Source of the DNA: Candidatus Nomurabacteria bacterium GW2011_GWE1_32_28
GTDB taxonomy: Bacteria > Patescibacteriota > Minisyncoccia > Phycocordibacterales > UBA9973
Assembly: GCA_000989515.1 (NCBI GenBank)
Contig: LBOM01000005.1
Span: forward strand, 2,709-66,708
Direction of reading: 5' to 3'
DNA length: 64,000 nt
The translations under genes were made by a program, and so were the position numbers. Under the pieces are notes generated by a model, which was not told the origin of the DNA, made no database searches, and saw only the letters and a list, made by a program, of their open reading frames with translations. Position 1 is the first letter of the stretch, and every line of letters starts with the position of its first letter. Shown piece after piece: positions 42,801-51,064 of this stretch.

Positions 42801-43145
42801 ACAGCAGATAACGATTGTGCTGATGCTCTTGATACTTCATGTACAGTTACATTTGTTGCAACTACAGAACAGCAAGTAAGTACTTCAAAGACATACTCAT
42901 TAAAGGGTTCAGTCTCTGGTACACTTACTGATGGAGATTACTTCTCTACTTCTATAGCTCAACCTTCAAGTTTTGTAGCAGCTGATGATTACACAGCAGT
43001 TGCTGCAACAGCAGCTACATTTGTATGGTCAGATATGACTGGTATTGGTCATGACATTACAAGTGAGACTGTTCTTGATTGGAACAATGGATATCTTGTA
43101 AAAATTCTTCCTCTTGATGCACAAACTTTGACTAGATCACTCTAG
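39855..43145 (+). CDS. Large Thr/Ser/Ala/Gly-rich surface (S-layer-like) protein with N-terminal signal peptide and peptidoglycan-binding (PG_binding_1-like) domain
   Basis: Signal MSKLLKSKFFLGVAVFALAFVVTASAMA; motif VQVQYLQQTLNEKGF...GPATVNAVKAFQAAKSLVADGIFGAKSRAAL; 1096 aa low-complexity beta-rich; codon usage distinct from neighbours; about 540-bp AT-rich upstream region. Confidence 0.5.
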   Translation: MSKLLKSKFFLGVAVFALAFVVTASAMAADGVITKTLKKGMKDVQVQYLQQTLNEKGFTVSSTGAGSAGSETTYFGPATVNAVKAFQAAKSLVADGIFGAKSRAALDSSSTVGDLCPNGMTMASNCTTLPSSTTETLCPNGMTLASNCSVAPAGNSTSTGPIAVSLAYTNPAPGTLVTGQATADLAHFNFTGTGTVTALTLQRIGVSADTTPSNIYLFDGATRLTDAASVTNTGLVTFANPAGLFVGGKTISVKSDILTNTSGQTLGMKLVSYTVDGVATAANISGNIHNIASATLAAVSAGTVTPSGATINPAAAVTLWQSTLTVSQRDVLMKRLALRQVGSAPASAFQNFKLYVNGVQVGTATGLDINGYVTFDLTSAPATLVAGSRVVRVDADVVSGASRTVQLSLRQAADVDFVDSSFGVNITPTSTPWTGSASTISGTSGGSLTVEKDVTSPSTNLTLSGTDVNLGTFKLTAYGESIKVETLTAGFTYTDTSAGGNTATLRNGRLLINGVQYGSTATILAAGTSFTTNYTVVPGTPVLVEVHADVYDNDGTLAIEAADTIVATLKTGSSNATRVDSMGSFNVPSADVSGNTLTVATTSITLSKNGTYANQTTVLPATNFKIGSWNLTGSSVEDVLLTTLSFDADEVVGTEFDEGDMTNMYVVVKSGSTTVAQPSPLGTVSAADNNFSINYTLPKNGSVTIELFANLSDDGLDSAIDAADSFKTDLTITGTSLVSGQSVTATSADTDGQTIAYGSASITVTKDASTPVAAIVYDNQEVTTAALKFAAVTSGYNVTDLTFTVDSTTVANTVNLYDGSTLLASQAGGVSPLTFSGLAWNIPANTNKVLTVKLVLGEVSDSGAGSTNGAALLTTLTSFTATSTSTGVSAAGTITSGAGNVAYVYAAVPSLENVSLSSTNVTAGTNVFAKYKVTSNGGPTAWEKTIFTIARATTGAAVANTFTLWDENNTQVAGTATLTDAGTADNDCADALDTSCTVTFVATTEQQVSTSKTYSLKGSVSGTLTDGDYFSTSIAQPSSFVAADDYTAVAATAATFVWSDMTGIGHDITSETVLDWNNGYLVKILPLDAQTLTRSL

Positions 43146-43354: not shown

Positions 43355-43375
43355 CCCACAAGTTGAACTTGTGGG
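43355..43375. repeat. Palindromic repeat CCCACAAGTTGAACTTGTGGG (family copy 1)
   Basis: Near-perfect 21-bp palindrome; same core at 44205-44225 and 51044-51064. Confidence 0.8.
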
Positions 43376-43494: not shown

Positions 43495-44199
43495 ATGAAC
43501 ATTATGATGAATATAGATAAAAAATATATAAAAGTTTGGGTTATTATAGCTGTTGTTGTTATTTTATTAGGATTAGGTTTTTATTTTAAAACTGACATAC
43601 AAAAGAAGTTTTCAACCCAAGAACCTATTGTTGAAGACAAGGTTTTATTAGAAGATGAAGAAAATAATAATACTGAAGCTCCTTCAGAAATAGAAGTAGG
43701 AGTAGAGGAGACAAAAGAAAATGTAGATTTGAAAGCTAAATTTAACGAAGCATTAAAAAATGCACGTGAAGCTTTTGTAAAAAAAGAATATCAAAAATCT
43801 TTAGATTATTATAACGAATCACTAAAATATAAAAATTCTGATATAAGTTATGCTGGAATGTTTTCAGTGTATTCTGCAAAGGGGGAGACAGCAAAAGCAG
43901 TGGAAATGTTAGATAAAGCTATCAAATTAAATCCTGCATATACTGAATATTGGAATTGGAAACTAATCATCTTAGAAGAAAAGACGAGTGCATCTTTTGC
44001 TGATTTAAAAAAGATTTATGAAGATGGTTTAACCAAAGTAGATTATAGAACTAAAGTAAATTTAGTCACTTTCTTTGCAAATATTACGGAGAGGTTTAAT
44101 CAAAAAGAGGAGGCCATATCACTTTGGACTTATGCACAAGAACTCTATCCAGAAAATAAAGAAATTTATCAGAAAGAGATAGATAGATTAACTGAATAA
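43495..44199 (+). CDS. Membrane-anchored TPR-repeat protein
   Basis: N-terminal TM (VWVIIAVVVILLGLGFYF), then TPR-like helical repeats (AKFNEALKNAREAFVKKEYQKSLDYYNESLKYK...). Confidence 0.45.
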   Translation: MNIMMNIDKKYIKVWVIIAVVVILLGLGFYFKTDIQKKFSTQEPIVEDKVLLEDEENNNTEAPSEIEVGVEETKENVDLKAKFNEALKNAREAFVKKEYQKSLDYYNESLKYKNSDISYAGMFSVYSAKGETAKAVEMLDKAIKLNPAYTEYWNWKLIILEEKTSASFADLKKIYEDGLTKVDYRTKVNLVTFFANITERFNQKEEAISLWTYAQELYPENKEIYQKEIDRLTE

Positions 44200-44204
44200 G
44201 TGGT

Positions 44205-44225
44205 CCCCACAAGTTCAACTTGTGG
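44205..44225. repeat. Palindromic repeat CCCCACAAGTTCAACTTGTGG (family copy 2), followed by a second hairpin AAAACCACCTGATGGTGGTTTT
   Basis: Direct reading; lies 6 bp after the stop of the TPR gene. Confidence 0.8.
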
Positions 44226-44301: not shown

Positions 44302-44877
44302 TTGGTCGATACAAAATCTCTTTTTATATTTATACGCATTATTATAATAATTTCTAAAAATTTTATGGAAAATGAAAATAAAAACAATAAGGTTGTCTAT
44401 TATGTTATAGGTGTAGTTATCGTTGTTGTTTTAATTCTTTTAGTTGTTTTGAATATGCAAACTTCTAATGAAACAATTACTCCAAATACAGATGATGAGA
44501 CGGCACTCGAGTCTGATCTAACGGCTGAGGATATCACAAAAATCTCAGAAGATACTAGTGAGGGGAGTATAAATGTTGGTGCTAGTGTTTCTACGATTTC
44601 TTATGCAGATGCATTGATAAAATATGCAGACAAAAGAATTCAATTTGATACAGCATGTCAGACATTTCCAAATACTGTCACATATAAAGATAATACTGGT
44701 ATCATGCTTGACAATCGTTCATCAATATCTAGAACTATTAAAGTAGGAACCAATTACACAGTTAAACCTTGGAGTTTTAAAATTGTTGTTCTACCAAATA
44801 TTTATCTTCAATCAAAAACTATCCTAGTAGATTGTGATAAATCTCAAAACGTAGCAACCATTCTAGTCCAAGAATAA
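44302..44877 (+). CDS. Hypothetical secreted/membrane-anchored protein (probable start at M 44365)
   Basis: TM anchor VVYYVIGVVIVVVLILLVVL then about 130 aa soluble domain. Confidence 0.35.
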   Translation: MVDTKSLFIFIRIIIIISKNFMENENKNNKVVYYVIGVVIVVVLILLVVLNMQTSNETITPNTDDETALESDLTAEDITKISEDTSEGSINVGASVSTISYADALIKYADKRIQFDTACQTFPNTVTYKDNTGIMLDNRSSISRTIKVGTNYTVKPWSFKIVVLPNIYLQSKTILVDCDKSQNVATILVQE

Positions 44878-44885
44878 AATTTAAT

Positions 44886-45000
44886 AAATCTTATCGGGTG
44901 TTGGACACCCGACAGAAAGAAAGTTTTTTCAAAACACTCACAAAATGTGGGTGTTTTTTATTATATTATGAGATAATGAGTAAGTTGTATTTTTATAATT
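44886..45000. repeat. About 115-bp repeat unit A containing the REP-like palindrome TCGGGTGTTGGACACCCGA (44894-44912)
   Basis: About 85% identical to 45786-45900 in direct orientation; the palindrome recurs at 45086-45106 (inverted core), 45789-45815, 46137-46167 and 46636-46654. Confidence 0.75.
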
Positions 45001-45177
45001 TAATTTAAATATTTTTTTATACATTAAGTGTAAGGGGAATATTTTTTTACTAATGACGTATAGAAAAGTTCCACTTATATCTTCCGTCGGGTGTCCAACA
45101 CCCGACAGTTGAATAAATTTGAAGATTTTTTGTTGGTCTGTATACTTTTTTACTTTTTAAAAGTATATAATTAGATA

Positions 45178-45774
45178 ATGGATCAAAAACAACCATGGTT
45201 TATAAATTTGTTTTTAAATTTTAAAGGAAGACTTTTAATTATAGTTTTTATTACGATCTTTGTTACGTTAATTACAGTTATTCATTCTTTTGTATTGAGA
45301 TTAAATCCTTATTTAATCATAGAGTTAGTAATCACTGTTTCTTTTTTTGGTATGTATTTTTCTATTCCTCAATTGATTGCTACTCAAAAAAGTGAAAAAT
45401 TTAGAAAAAGATTATATCTTAAAAGTGGTAAAAAAATATTATCATTATTATCTTCGATTTCTTTCTATTTTATTTTATGTATTTTAATTGTTTTTTTATT
45501 TGGTATGGTTCTTGCTACTATATTTACTTCATCTGACAATGGAGAAATTTGGGCTTATTCTCTTTTTGGTTCTGGTTTATATGTTTTTATCTTTTGGTTA
45601 GCTTCTTTCTTAGTTGGTGTAATTTCTTTATTATTAAATTCTAATAAATCGGAAATTGTAATAGTTCAGGAAAGAACTCCTGTTAAAGTTTATTTTTCAT
45701 CTATTATTTTTATTTTTTTATCCGTACTTGTATTATTCTTTGTATTTATATTTACTGTAGAAAATTATTTATAA
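45178..45774 (+). CDS. Hypothetical polytopic membrane protein (198 aa) lying between the two 115-bp direct repeats
   Basis: 4 to 5 predicted TM helices, no motifs. Confidence 0.35.
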   Translation: MDQKQPWFINLFLNFKGRLLIIVFITIFVTLITVIHSFVLRLNPYLIIELVITVSFFGMYFSIPQLIATQKSEKFRKRLYLKSGKKILSLLSSISFYFILCILIVFLFGMVLATIFTSSDNGEIWAYSLFGSGLYVFIFWLASFLVGVISLLLNSNKSEIVIVQERTPVKVYFSSIIFIFLSVLVLFFVFIFTVENYL

Positions 45775-45785
45775 TTTTACTTTAT

Positions 45786-45900
45786 TATCTTGTCGGGTGT
45801 TGGACACCCGACAAGATAAGGAGTTTTTATAAAACACTCATATTTTACGGGTGTTTTATTTTGTGTTATGAGATAATAGTTATGGTTGTATTTATAATTT
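45786..45900. repeat. About 115-bp repeat unit B containing the extended palindrome CTTGTCGGGTGTTGGACACCCGACAAG
   Basis: Direct repeat of unit A. Confidence 0.75.
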
Positions 45901-45962
45901 TATTTTAATAAAGATTTTTAAAAGATTTCCAGTTATTGGATTTCTGTAGATCTTAATTTTTT

Positions 45963-46622
45963 ATGAGAAAAAATCCTCTTGTAACTAATCAGTATTATCA
46001 TATTTATAATAGAGGAGTCGATAAAAGAGATATTTTTATGAATAAATCTGATTTAGATAGATTTATTTTGAGTGTAAAGGAATTTAATATAGTTAAACCT
46101 ATAGGTAGTATTAAAGAGCGATTAATAGAATTAAAAGCCCCGTCGGGTGTTGGACACCCGACGGGGCTTGTTTCTATTGTCTGTTATTGTTTTAATCCAA
46201 ATCATTTTCATTTTATTTTAAAACAAGAAGTAGATGGTGGAATTTCAGAATTTTTTAAGCGTTTACTTGGTGGATATACAAATTATTTTAATTTAATACA
46301 CAAGAGAAATGGGGCATTATTTCAAGGAAGATTTAAGTCTAATTTGGTTGACGATGAAGAATATTTTTTAAAAATTCGTCCTTATGTGCATTTAAATTAT
46401 TTAGTACATGATATTCCAAAAGAAAAAAAGTATTTAATATCATCAAGCAAGAAAGAATATGATACTAATAAATTTACTATTGTTTCAAAAAAAGAAGCAA
46501 AAGAACTTTTGGATTTTTATAATGGTAATCTAAATTATAAAAAAGAATGCTTAGATGTAATTTCTTTTATTCGAGAAGAAAGAGGATTAACTTCTTTGTT
46601 TGAAGAAGAATTATTACCATAA
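45963..46622 (+). CDS. HuH-family Y1 (IS200-like / REP-associated tyrosine transposase, RAYT-like) protein; possibly degenerate
   Basis: YYHIYNRGVDKRDIF N-terminal strand, HuH motif NPNHFHFIL, C-terminal GALFQGRFKS...DDEEY...YVHLNYLVHD resembling RAYT LWQRGFYDH...YIHFNPV; a 31-bp perfect palindrome (46137-46167) lies in frame inside the gene. Confidence 0.5.
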   Translation: MRKNPLVTNQYYHIYNRGVDKRDIFMNKSDLDRFILSVKEFNIVKPIGSIKERLIELKAPSGVGHPTGLVSIVCYCFNPNHFHFILKQEVDGGISEFFKRLLGGYTNYFNLIHKRNGALFQGRFKSNLVDDEEYFLKIRPYVHLNYLVHDIPKEKKYLISSSKKEYDTNKFTIVSKKEAKELLDFYNGNLNYKKECLDVISFIREERGLTSLFEEELLP

Positions 46623-46723
46623 AAATTATCCCTTATCGGGTGTTGGACACCCGAAATGGAAAGTTATACACCTTTTTGCTTTATTTTTGTTGTGTAATGT
46701 TTTCATTAGCATATACTTGAACA

Positions 46724-51043: not shown

Positions 51044-51064
51044 CCACAAGTTCAACTTGTGGGG
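51044..51064. repeat. Palindromic repeat CCACAAGTTCAACTTGTGGGG (family copy 3), 5 bp after the adhesin stop
   Basis: Direct reading. Confidence 0.8.

Follow-up and report, generated by a model that had tools for sequence, protein, structure and literature searches.

An in-frame palindrome is a conserved feature of a RAYT-like HuH/Y1 gene family in bacteria of the Candidate Phyla Radiation

An open reading frame (ORF) at positions 45963-46622 of the 64-kb stretch of DNA analysed here (the window; 32% G+C) encodes a 219-amino-acid (aa) protein resembling the REP-associated tyrosine transposases (RAYTs), which take their name from repetitive extragenic palindromes (REPs). We found that a perfect palindrome lies in frame within this gene, that the same palindrome core stands just before and just after it, and that this arrangement recurs across a large gene family of the Candidate Phyla Radiation (CPR). 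The locus is probably a REPtron, that is, a RAYT-like HuH/Y1 single-stranded DNA (ssDNA) endonuclease/transferase of a CPR-specific clade together with its cognate palindrome, with the internal copy resident in a permissive loop of the protein. In-frame REPs in RAYT genes have published precedent in other bacteria; here the in-frame hairpin is conserved across a large CPR gene family and directs attention to a single amino acid that may read it. A hypothetical protein from a Candidatus Nomurabacteria metagenome-assembled genome (MAG; locus tag UR25_C0005G0044) matches the product at 100% identity, and on this basis we attribute the window to a CPR bacterium (Paceibacterota).

Palindrome copies at the RAYT-like locus

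A scan of the window for the 17-mer CGGGTGTTGGACACCCG (CGGGTGT-TGG-ACACCCG) returned exact copies at 44895, 45794, 46144 and 46637 and a fifth copy at 45088 in which the loop is flipped (CCA), compared to 0.01 sites expected by chance. This bears out the five occurrences that the initial annotation had placed between 44.9 and 46.7 kb. The copies and the gene that they accompany are as follows.

44894-44912, + strand: REP copy 1, TCGGGTGT-TGG-ACACCCGA, with an 8-bp stem, 17 nt past the stop of the ORF at 44302-44877; folding free energy (dG) -9.1 kcal/mol, z -3.9
45086-45106, + strand: REP copy 2, with a flipped loop, GTCGGGTGT-CCA-ACACCCGAC, and a 9-bp stem, 5' of a small membrane ORF; dG -10.2 kcal/mol
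45785-45819, + strand: REP copy 3, the upstream REP of the RAYT-like gene, with a 16-bp perfect stem, TTATCTTGTCGGGTGT / ACACCCGACAAGATAA; dG -17.6 kcal/mol, z -9.6
45963-46622, + strand: RAYT-like HuH/Y1 gene, 219 aa, with the HuH residues H81-F-H83 encoded at 46203-46211
46135-46169, + strand: REP copy 4 (internal), a 35-bp perfect palindrome with a TGG loop, in frame, codons 58-69 (KAPSGVGHPTGL)
46281-46283, 46335-46337 and 46383-46385, + strand: landmark codons of the gene, respectively N107, K125 (in FQGRFK) and the candidate catalytic Tyr, Y141
46636-46654, + strand: REP copy 5, the downstream REP of the gene, 14 nt past its stop codon, at the conserved downstream hairpin position

Copy 3 likewise matches the conserved upstream hairpin position of the family. 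Successive copies are 193, 706, 350 and 493 nt apart, spacings on which we rejected a CRISPR-like or tandem arrangement. The palindrome within the coding sequence, initially annotated as 31 bp long, is indeed perfect and in frame, but it spans 35 bp, with 16-bp arms (46135-46150 and 46154-46169) around a 3-nt loop, and is translated within the ORF as ..LKAPSGVGHPTGLV... Folded as ssDNA, it exceeds the other four copies in stability (-22.1 kcal/mol, z -8.5); the upstream copy ranks second at -17.6 kcal/mol, and the remaining three lie at about -9 to -10 kcal/mol. The 21-mer palindrome has a stop codon in none of its six reading frames.

Fold and catalytic residues of the enzyme

The family of this protein is large: a word-indexed search retrieves 3,052 proteins, and 13,632 cluster representatives match at E<=0.001. 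The protein itself scores marginally above the gathering threshold of the Pfam model Y1_Tnp (PF01797; 23.3 bits versus a cutoff of 23) and below the curated cutoff of the NCBIfam equivalog REP_Tyr_transpos, which is of the E. coli type (NF047646; 23.9 bits versus 80). Among 45 diverse family members that are 33-68% identical to the query, all 45 match Y1_Tnp at E<=1e-3 (best 2.8e-11) and 41 match REP_Tyr_transpos, only at E<=1e-3. The HuH motif noted initially is present (NPNHFHF, with H81 and H83), and H13, H81, H83, N110, R115, G117, L119, Y141 and N145 are invariant in the 45 members, with K125 almost invariant.

Searching PDB sequences with the single protein returned nothing relevant, and the family profile gave weak matches only, so a comparison of folds was needed. 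The AlphaFold2 (AF2) model built on the 45-member alignment (predicted local distance difference test 92, predicted template modelling score 0.87) places the HuH motif on strand 81-88 and Y141 on helix 132-143. Its best PDB match in Foldseek is 4ER8, E. coli TnpA_REP with a REP hairpin (E 2.8e-5, root-mean-square deviation 3.1 Å, 156 columns), followed by the TnpA proteins of IS608 and ISDra2 (2A6M, 2VJV, 2XM3). The match to Y1_Tnp passes the check set in the initial annotation, and the earlier proposal of a RAYT-like enzyme accompanied by its own REPs is supported.

The profile-to-4ER8 alignment is weak alone (E 0.57) and consistent with the fold match, pairing FQGRFK with WQPRFW and the family's 'aYvnlN' with 'DYIYIN', so that Y141 aligns with the catalytic Y115 and K125 with W99. 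Its register is supported by the recovery, in the derived numbering, of residues named in the literature (E68, S74, W94, Q95, R97 and E100). On this alignment, Y141 is the equivalent of Y115. The initial annotation had read the catalytic Tyr as replaced by Lys (GRFKS) and had suggested an inactivated or domesticated enzyme; GRFKS aligns instead with 'PRFWE' of E. coli TnpA_REP, and the supposed replacement is an alignment error because K125 corresponds to W99 and Y141, invariant in the 45 members, to Y115. Judged from its residues (H81-F-H83 and Y141), the enzyme appears catalytically intact. The Tyr motif reads Y141-V-H-L-N145, with N145 invariant; the residue after it is Y here versus the P of Y-x3-N-P, and is variable in the family.

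Six homologs (P0079, P0100, P0111, P0118, P0119 and P0120) are 194-196 aa long, starting at the equivalent of M26 and thereby missing both the invariant H13 and the initial beta strand in which it lies (YYHIYNRG); they are probably miscalled starts or truncated genes. We also considered the 194-aa homologs as candidates for proteins lacking the hairpin-encoded insert and rejected them, since they are shorter at the N-terminus (start at M26) and keep the insert.

Conservation of the in-frame hairpin

The in-frame palindrome had been taken for a peculiarity of this one gene, whereas it is a conserved feature of the family and has a published counterpart in TnpA_REP subclass 2.4 (PMC6006769). The insert is present in 24 of 24 close homologs aligned, in which it encodes SGVGHP, SGVQHP, SDVGRP, SDVQRP and similar peptides. 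In a metagenomic set of 80 loci whose proteins are 40-85% identical, most loci carry a perfect in-frame palindrome about 50-60 nt 5' of the HuH codons, with a lineage-specific sequence (CGGACGT-TGG-ACGTCCG, AGATAGCGCC-TAA-GGCGCTATCT, GGCGGTT-T-AACCGCC or AGACGTC-G-GACGTCT). A perfect stem of at least 7 bp occurs before the HuH codons in 76% of 75 complete genes, compared to 9.7% of 724 control segments from the same genes.

Hairpins containing G and C are concentrated around four positions relative to the HuH codons, namely about -300 to -270, -60, +210, and +420 to +450. In most loci the core found inside the gene recurs just 5' of the start (about -220 nt) and just 3' of the stop (about +490 nt), and the loci together display over 20 distinct cores. 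Loop orientation varies freely among copies and loci. Hairpins are present at the upstream, internal and downstream sites together in 40 loci, at the upstream and internal sites in 9, at the upstream and downstream sites in another 9 and at the downstream site alone in 7, with 5 loci having none. Stems have been lengthened past the shared core independently in each locus, reaching 20-23 bp within coding sequence.

We then measured covariation among 14 close relatives in a structure-blind MAFFT alignment whose only anchors were the conserved coding flanks. The 9-bp core helix is 94.9% paired in this alignment, and four of its pairs change on both sides; the observed covariation score was reached by 0 of 500 shuffles, and pairing collapses when the partners are slid by 1-3 columns. 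At the protein level, 91 of 102 close homologs encode GVGH (13), GVQH (24), DVGR (31) or DVQR (23), with no mixed forms. In DNA these correspond to two stem types that are two compensatory base pairs apart (GGT/CAC and GAC/CGT), each found with the loop in either orientation (GGA or CAA). Changes in the stem are compensatory, and structural constraint acts on the hairpin. The AF2 model shows the encoded residues (approximately 58-69) as a coil, predicted with lowered confidence, that connects helix 50-56 to strand 70-77, and depicts the hairpin-encoded segment as a permissive surface loop.

About ten loci have a second in-frame copy after the helix of the catalytic Tyr (L049, L053, L054, L055, L059, L064, L065, L075, L079 and L080). 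It lies about +276-282 nt from the first internal copy, or some 210-240 nt 3' of the HuH codons, and such proteins therefore contain two occurrences of one short peptide, LGGLTAK and GGSTAT being examples. Three loci have a 44-48-nt double palindrome at the internal site, also in frame (L069:10201-10244, L071:2471-2518 and L077:~2291); these consist of two inverted REPs, resembling REP doublets forming hairpins (REPINs), and the upstream flanks of L069 and L071 have a similar one. Extra RAYT-like ORFs lie about 8 kb downstream of the main one in L054 (14532-14828 and 15428-17218) together with two more of the locus palindromes (14673 and 14819), and may represent a paralog or a decayed second REPtron.

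Covariation of residue 107 with stem type

Outside the hairpin-encoded segment, residue 107, the variable x of the conserved G-Y-T-x-Y-F-N, follows the stem type: it is N in 30 of 32 proteins of the G..H type and K in 52 of 53 of the D..R type, and the next-best position outside residues 43-67 carries under one third of its information. In distant loci N occurs with ..GGTGT (13/13), K or R with ..GAC(G/A)T, and W with ..GGCGGT (12/12), and in the AGATAG-type clade S occurs with ATAG[C/G] and Y with ATAG[A/T]. When these columns are excluded from tree building, each character requires about 17 parsimony changes on the resulting tree, and the two are concordant in 82 of 85 sequences.

In the alignment to 4ER8, residue 107 corresponds to H86 and R123 to R97. 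H86 is among the alphaB/alphaC residues of the hairpin-binding surface of E. coli TnpA_REP, in which R97 makes a base-specific contact (PMC3479197). We regard the covariation of residue 107 with the stem as a lead towards a protein-DNA link, not as proof of one.

Inheritance of the locus and dispersal of the palindrome

The window holds one copy of the RAYT gene, and no second RAYT-like gene was found in its 64 kb. Gene order (..g04 - RAYT - g06 - g07 - g08 - g09 - g10..) is kept between the window and loci L001, L003, L005 and L008, whose proteins are 67-85% identical, and only the stretch just 5' of the RAYT gene varies among these syntenic loci. In the window, this variable stretch contains an ORF with tetratricopeptide repeats, a 191-aa ORF, a 198-aa hydrophobic ORF, the palindromes at 44894 and 45086, which stand at ORF boundaries, and an 87-nt repeat. 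A Pfam scan of a subset of the nearby ORFs gave no transposase or TnpB-type match. The locus is vertically inherited and is not a hopping insertion sequence (IS).

To follow the palindrome beyond the window, the exact 17-mer was searched in one genome per species (596 Gb). Among the matches listed, it lies on 3 to at least 8 contigs in several CPR genomes, and single matches in unrelated high-GC genomes are, by our estimate, roughly at chance level. Using the locus-specific core of each of 56 loci, we counted 3.05 copies within 2 kb of the gene versus 4 copies in 402 kb of farther flank (about 1 per 100 kb), so that palindrome density at the gene exceeds that of the distant flanks more than 100-fold. 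The initial annotation had proposed a genome-wide REP; presence on many contigs of related CPR genomes agrees with this, but the copy number is low, and the palindrome as counted in these genomes fits the description only weakly.

About 40 of 68 palindrome copies in CPR loci lie inside long ORFs, 26 of the 40 in the phase that reads S-G-V-G/Q-H-P. The dispersed copies are bare palindromes without the gene, and most extragenic ones lie just past stop codons. Pfam-confirmed hosts include Mur ligases (MurE, MurD), PurH, GatB, LepA, MnmA, topoisomerase I (TopA) and a class-V aminotransferase, distributed as follows.

L083:1627-2883, L107:407-1675 and L118:3017-4276: MurE-like hosts, in three genomes
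L114 and L153: MurD-like hosts, in two genomes
L137:4189-5700 and L172: GatB hosts, in a Nomurabacteria MAG and a MAG labelled Saccharibacteria
L140 and L170: LepA hosts, in two genomes
L120, L141, L145 and L157: respectively PurH, MnmA, TopA and class-V aminotransferase hosts

Most host sites read SGVGHP or SGVQHP, and the same sites are filled across MAGs labelled as different CPR classes. Some host sites hold back-to-back palindrome doublets. In the HLEED-FNRAG loop of GatB, about 80% of 120 orthologs (P0271-P0390) have no insertion and about 20% have diverse segments, including peptides of other REP types (P0390 SDVGRPKFGRPTS; P0322 DADVGRQ..TSDVG; P0273 LSGIQVSNTRQ), and this loop is an insertion hot spot.

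The identical 17-mer is also found in several MAGs labelled Saccharibacteria (L180, L184, L094-L096, L134, L145, L166, L170 and L182), and in L180 and L184 the sampled stretch of the RAYT gene (PIGSIK..LVSIVCYCFNPNHFHF) is a near match to the Nomurabacteria ones. These matches reflect horizontal transfer, strong conservation, or mislabelled or contaminated bins.

Interpretation and alternative explanations

By analogy with E. coli TnpA_REP, the enzyme would bind the hairpin of the palindrome in ssDNA through an alphaB/alphaC surface that includes residue 107, and would cut and rejoin DNA beside it. Such cutting and rejoining would seed and maintain the palindrome copies, perhaps homogenising them, and the copies would concentrate at the gene itself: before its start, after its stop and, in translated form, in a disordered permissive loop. 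On this reading the internal copy is a resident REP; its hairpin and its identity with the flanking copies are kept over evolution. We favour its persistence through preferential action of the enzyme in cis combined with a tolerant loop, and an extra role in limiting expression of its own gene is possible. The internal hairpin is not a sign of gene decay. A bolder proposal, which we offer tentatively and with considerable doubt, is that the gene carries its cognate hairpin in its own coding sequence, that the residue at the N107 position reads the loop-proximal base pairs of the stem, and that the palindrome may be adapted to the coding genes of gene-dense genomes, settling in the same loops of essential proteins across genomes and CPR classes.

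Several observations weigh against the REPtron reading. Sequence similarity to known RAYTs is weak (23.3 versus 23 bits, 23.9 versus 80 bits, and E 0.57 for the profile against 4ER8). The palindromes are fully symmetric apart from the loop and have no asymmetric GT[AG]G guide foot, because of which no cleavage site can be proposed; in the consensus of 79 oriented copies, c-T-G-T-CGGGTGT..ACACCCG-A-C-A/G, the foot GTCG/TGTC is paired with its complement. Copy number falls far under the tens to hundreds per genome of classical REPs, which means that high-copy dispersal is not seen, and the 17-mer occurs nowhere else in the window outside 44.9-46.7 kb, forming a single 1.8-kb cluster. About 16 of 79 related loci have the flanking hairpins and no internal one, so the internal copy is dispensable. 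Finally, a recombining block over residues 52-107 could produce the same covariation of residue 107 with the stem via linkage.

The internal hairpin, and perhaps all three, might instead be cis-regulatory, acting as a stable mRNA or ssDNA stem that attenuates the RAYT gene or as a site of self-repression; this is compatible with the REPtron reading, and the two differ over the reason for which the internal copy is kept. That copy surpasses the other four in stability, is terminator-like on the + strand and is followed by GTTTCTATTG; the independent extension of stems in coding sequence would also suit a regulatory role, as would occupancy of the internal site (76%; 91/102 close homologs) far above the roughly 20% seen at the GatB host site. 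Extension of stems can, however, arise without selection through templated correction of quasi-palindromes, and the loci with flanking hairpins alone do without the internal one. The distance from the hairpin to the T-rich LVSIV codons varies between lineages, which makes a conserved intrinsic terminator unlikely, and with some lineages having no internal hairpin we did not adopt that explanation. Overall, we consider regulation in cis an unlikely reason for the persistence of the internal copy, though one to be taken seriously.

It is quite improbable that the palindromes are generic elements unrelated to the enzyme, such as terminators, mRNA stabilisers, or uptake or host-protein sites. CPR bacteria are thought to depend on DNA uptake, the extragenic copies mostly lie just past stops, and a second, unrelated palindrome family in the window behaves likewise; against this, the palindromes differ in sequence from one RAYT lineage to another but keep fixed positions around the gene, their local density is more than 100-fold that of distant flanks, the stem covaries with a residue of the enzyme's predicted hairpin-binding helix, and most copies have no T-run. 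Also highly improbable is an autonomous IS of the IS200/IS605 type, in which upstream hairpin, gene and downstream hairpin would move as a whole with identical subterminal hairpins. Hairpins at fixed short distances from both gene ends, in the same loop orientation in the window, and a fold common to IS608 and ISDra2 TnpA would fit such an element, but gene order is conserved among relatives with 67-85% identical proteins, there is one copy in the 64 kb, loop orientation is free to vary, and dispersed copies are bare palindromes. The enzyme moreover has a class-2 Y motif (Y141-x3-N145) rather than the Y-x3-Q of IS200 transposases (PMC6006769), which together with its single syntenic copy sets it outside IS200/IS605 TnpA (subclass 1.1). 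Inactivation or domestication by replacement of the catalytic Tyr with Lys (GRFKS) is scarcely credible: K125 is almost invariant, and a single copy in the window with conserved synteny fits 'domesticated' in the sense of Bertels et al. 2017, yet K125 matches W99 of the WQPRFW motif, and Y141, the invariant match of Y115, sits on helix 132-143 as expected.

Ideas on the recognition, spread and co-evolution of RAYTs and REPs have largely come from a single crystal structure and a small number of proteobacterial systems. With a fixed hairpin site in the gene, each of more than 3,000 public homologs would be a matched enzyme-target pair. Of the new elements, the covariation of residue 107 with the stem is the most useful, as it makes RAYT-REP specificity experimentally approachable. 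If the bolder proposal above is true, any metagenomic contig with the gene, even one of 1 kb, would report both the enzyme and its DNA target, and thousands of natural pairs would constitute a readable specificity code for a hairpin-recognising HuH enzyme. REPtrons would also extend to the CPR and to a 2.1-like RAYT group thought to be without REPs. In these compact genomes many copies of a REP family stand in frame in essential genes, which bears on how repeats survive where intergenic space is scarce and raises an annotation issue, as the segments resemble odd insertions.

Comparison with known systems

The arrangement agrees with RAYT class 2 REPtrons in its flanking copies (45785-45819 and 46636-46654, with most of the 80 loci likewise), in the dispersed copies of related genomes, and in low gene copy number with vertical inheritance (one copy in the window, synteny); it departs from them in having no GT[AG]G 5' guide at the hairpin foot. 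The closest precedent is TnpA_REP subclass 2.4 (Bertels Group 4), in which in-frame REP insertions in the gene are frequent and were called unique to 2.4 (Quentin, Siguier, Chandler and Fichant 2018, PMC6006769). The subclass 2.4 insertions, located between HuH and Y, vary greatly and accompany GT[AG]G-footed REPs in Cyanobacteria and Bacteroidetes (PMC6006769). Both systems have a RAYT gene flanked by REPs, with further REPs that leave the coding frame intact and encode a peripheral variable loop. Unlike in subclass 2.4, the main site here is 5' of HuH (about 50-60 nt before its codons), positionally conserved, and located between the helix after alphaA and beta2; the second site of some lineages follows the Y motif; and the motifs are FQ and YVHLN, the foot is symmetric, (T/C)GTC..GAC(A/G), and the hosts are CPR bacteria. 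These differences place the family outside subclass 2.4.

By inspection, the family resembles subclass 2.1 and Bertels Group 1 in NH[YF]H (NHFH), FQ, Y[IV]HLN, a C-terminal SS (S161-S162), a length of about 220-240 aa and low-copy repeats. Subclass 2.1 (TnpA_Y1) is reported to be free of REP-like sequences, with only terminal inverted repeats in some members (PMC6006769), whereas the clade described here has clear hairpin REPs flanking and inside the gene. The flanking 16-mers of Group 1 are low-copy, at about 12 per replicon (Bertels et al. 2017). The survey of Quentin et al. 2018 makes no mention of CPR genomes (PMC6006769), and our literature search for RAYTs in CPR/Patescibacteria found nothing relevant.

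The best structural match, E. coli TnpA_REP (Messing et al. 2012, PMC3479197), is a RAYT of subclass 2.2 whose REP-hairpin-bound structure is 4ER8; it has HuH and Tyr on equivalent elements, and its hairpin-binding alphaB/alphaC corresponds to the helix with residue 107, although identity is only about 14%. The REPs of E. coli number in the hundreds, are extragenic and form imperfect, bulged hairpins with GTAG as the 5' guide, whereas the palindromes described here are perfect, have no GTAG, occur about once per 100 kb and are in many cases intragenic.

The palindromic elements of Rickettsia (RPE-1) are said, in work by Ogata and colleagues from 2000, to lie in frame in genes. Intragenic REPs in housekeeping genes have also been catalogued (Di Nocera et al. 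2013, PMC3733652). Like these elements, the palindromes studied here are short, stand in frame in housekeeping genes and are tolerated in surface loops. They differ in being tied to a specific RAYT-like gene, whereas the CGTC families have had no dedicated transposase identified and RPE-1 is longer, and in filling the same host sites (MurE, MurD, GatB, LepA) in different genomes. CGTC-tagged REPs have an unpaired CGTC/TGTC head, an 8-9 bp stem starting from A/T pairs, a loop of 4-5 nt and a CCA tail (PMC3733652). We considered membership of this group, since many copies start with (C/T)GTC, and rejected it because the (T/C)GTC head is base-paired here, the stem starts from G-C pairs, the loop is 3 nt long and there is no CCA tail.

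Other features of the window

Between the ORF ending at 44877 and the RAYT gene lie three further features.

44922-45008, + strand: 87-nt repeat D2a, 3' of REP copy 1; its hairpin at 44931-44957, of 12 pairs followed by a T-run, is terminator-like
45178-45774, + strand: 198-aa hydrophobic ORF between REP copies 2 and 3, within the stretch that varies among syntenic relatives
45822-45908, + strand: 87-nt repeat D2b, sharing 70% identity with D2a; its terminator-like hairpin is weaker, and it includes a -10-like box, TGAGATAAT

The 198-aa ORF has no Pfam match, and scanning the neighbouring small ORFs against Pfam assigned a function to none. D2b probably contains both the terminator for the upstream ORF and the RAYT gene's 5' region; its TGAGATAAT box may act as a promoter, and site prediction lists no strong + strand promoter at D2b. 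The arms of the D2a hairpin resemble half a REP (ACACTC/GGGTGT; AAAACACTC..GGGTGTTTT). As a direct repeat, D2a and D2b bracket the lineage-specific 198-aa ORF, and the pair suggests an old duplication or an insertion mediated at REPs.

The second, unrelated palindrome family of the window, CCACAAGTT-(C/G)-AACTTGTGG, is represented by three exact copies compared to 0 expected, at 43356-43374, 44207-44225 and 51044-51062. Two of these copies lie a few nucleotides past stops (of the ORFs ending at 44199 and 51039), and one lies about 200 nt past the ORF ending at 43145.

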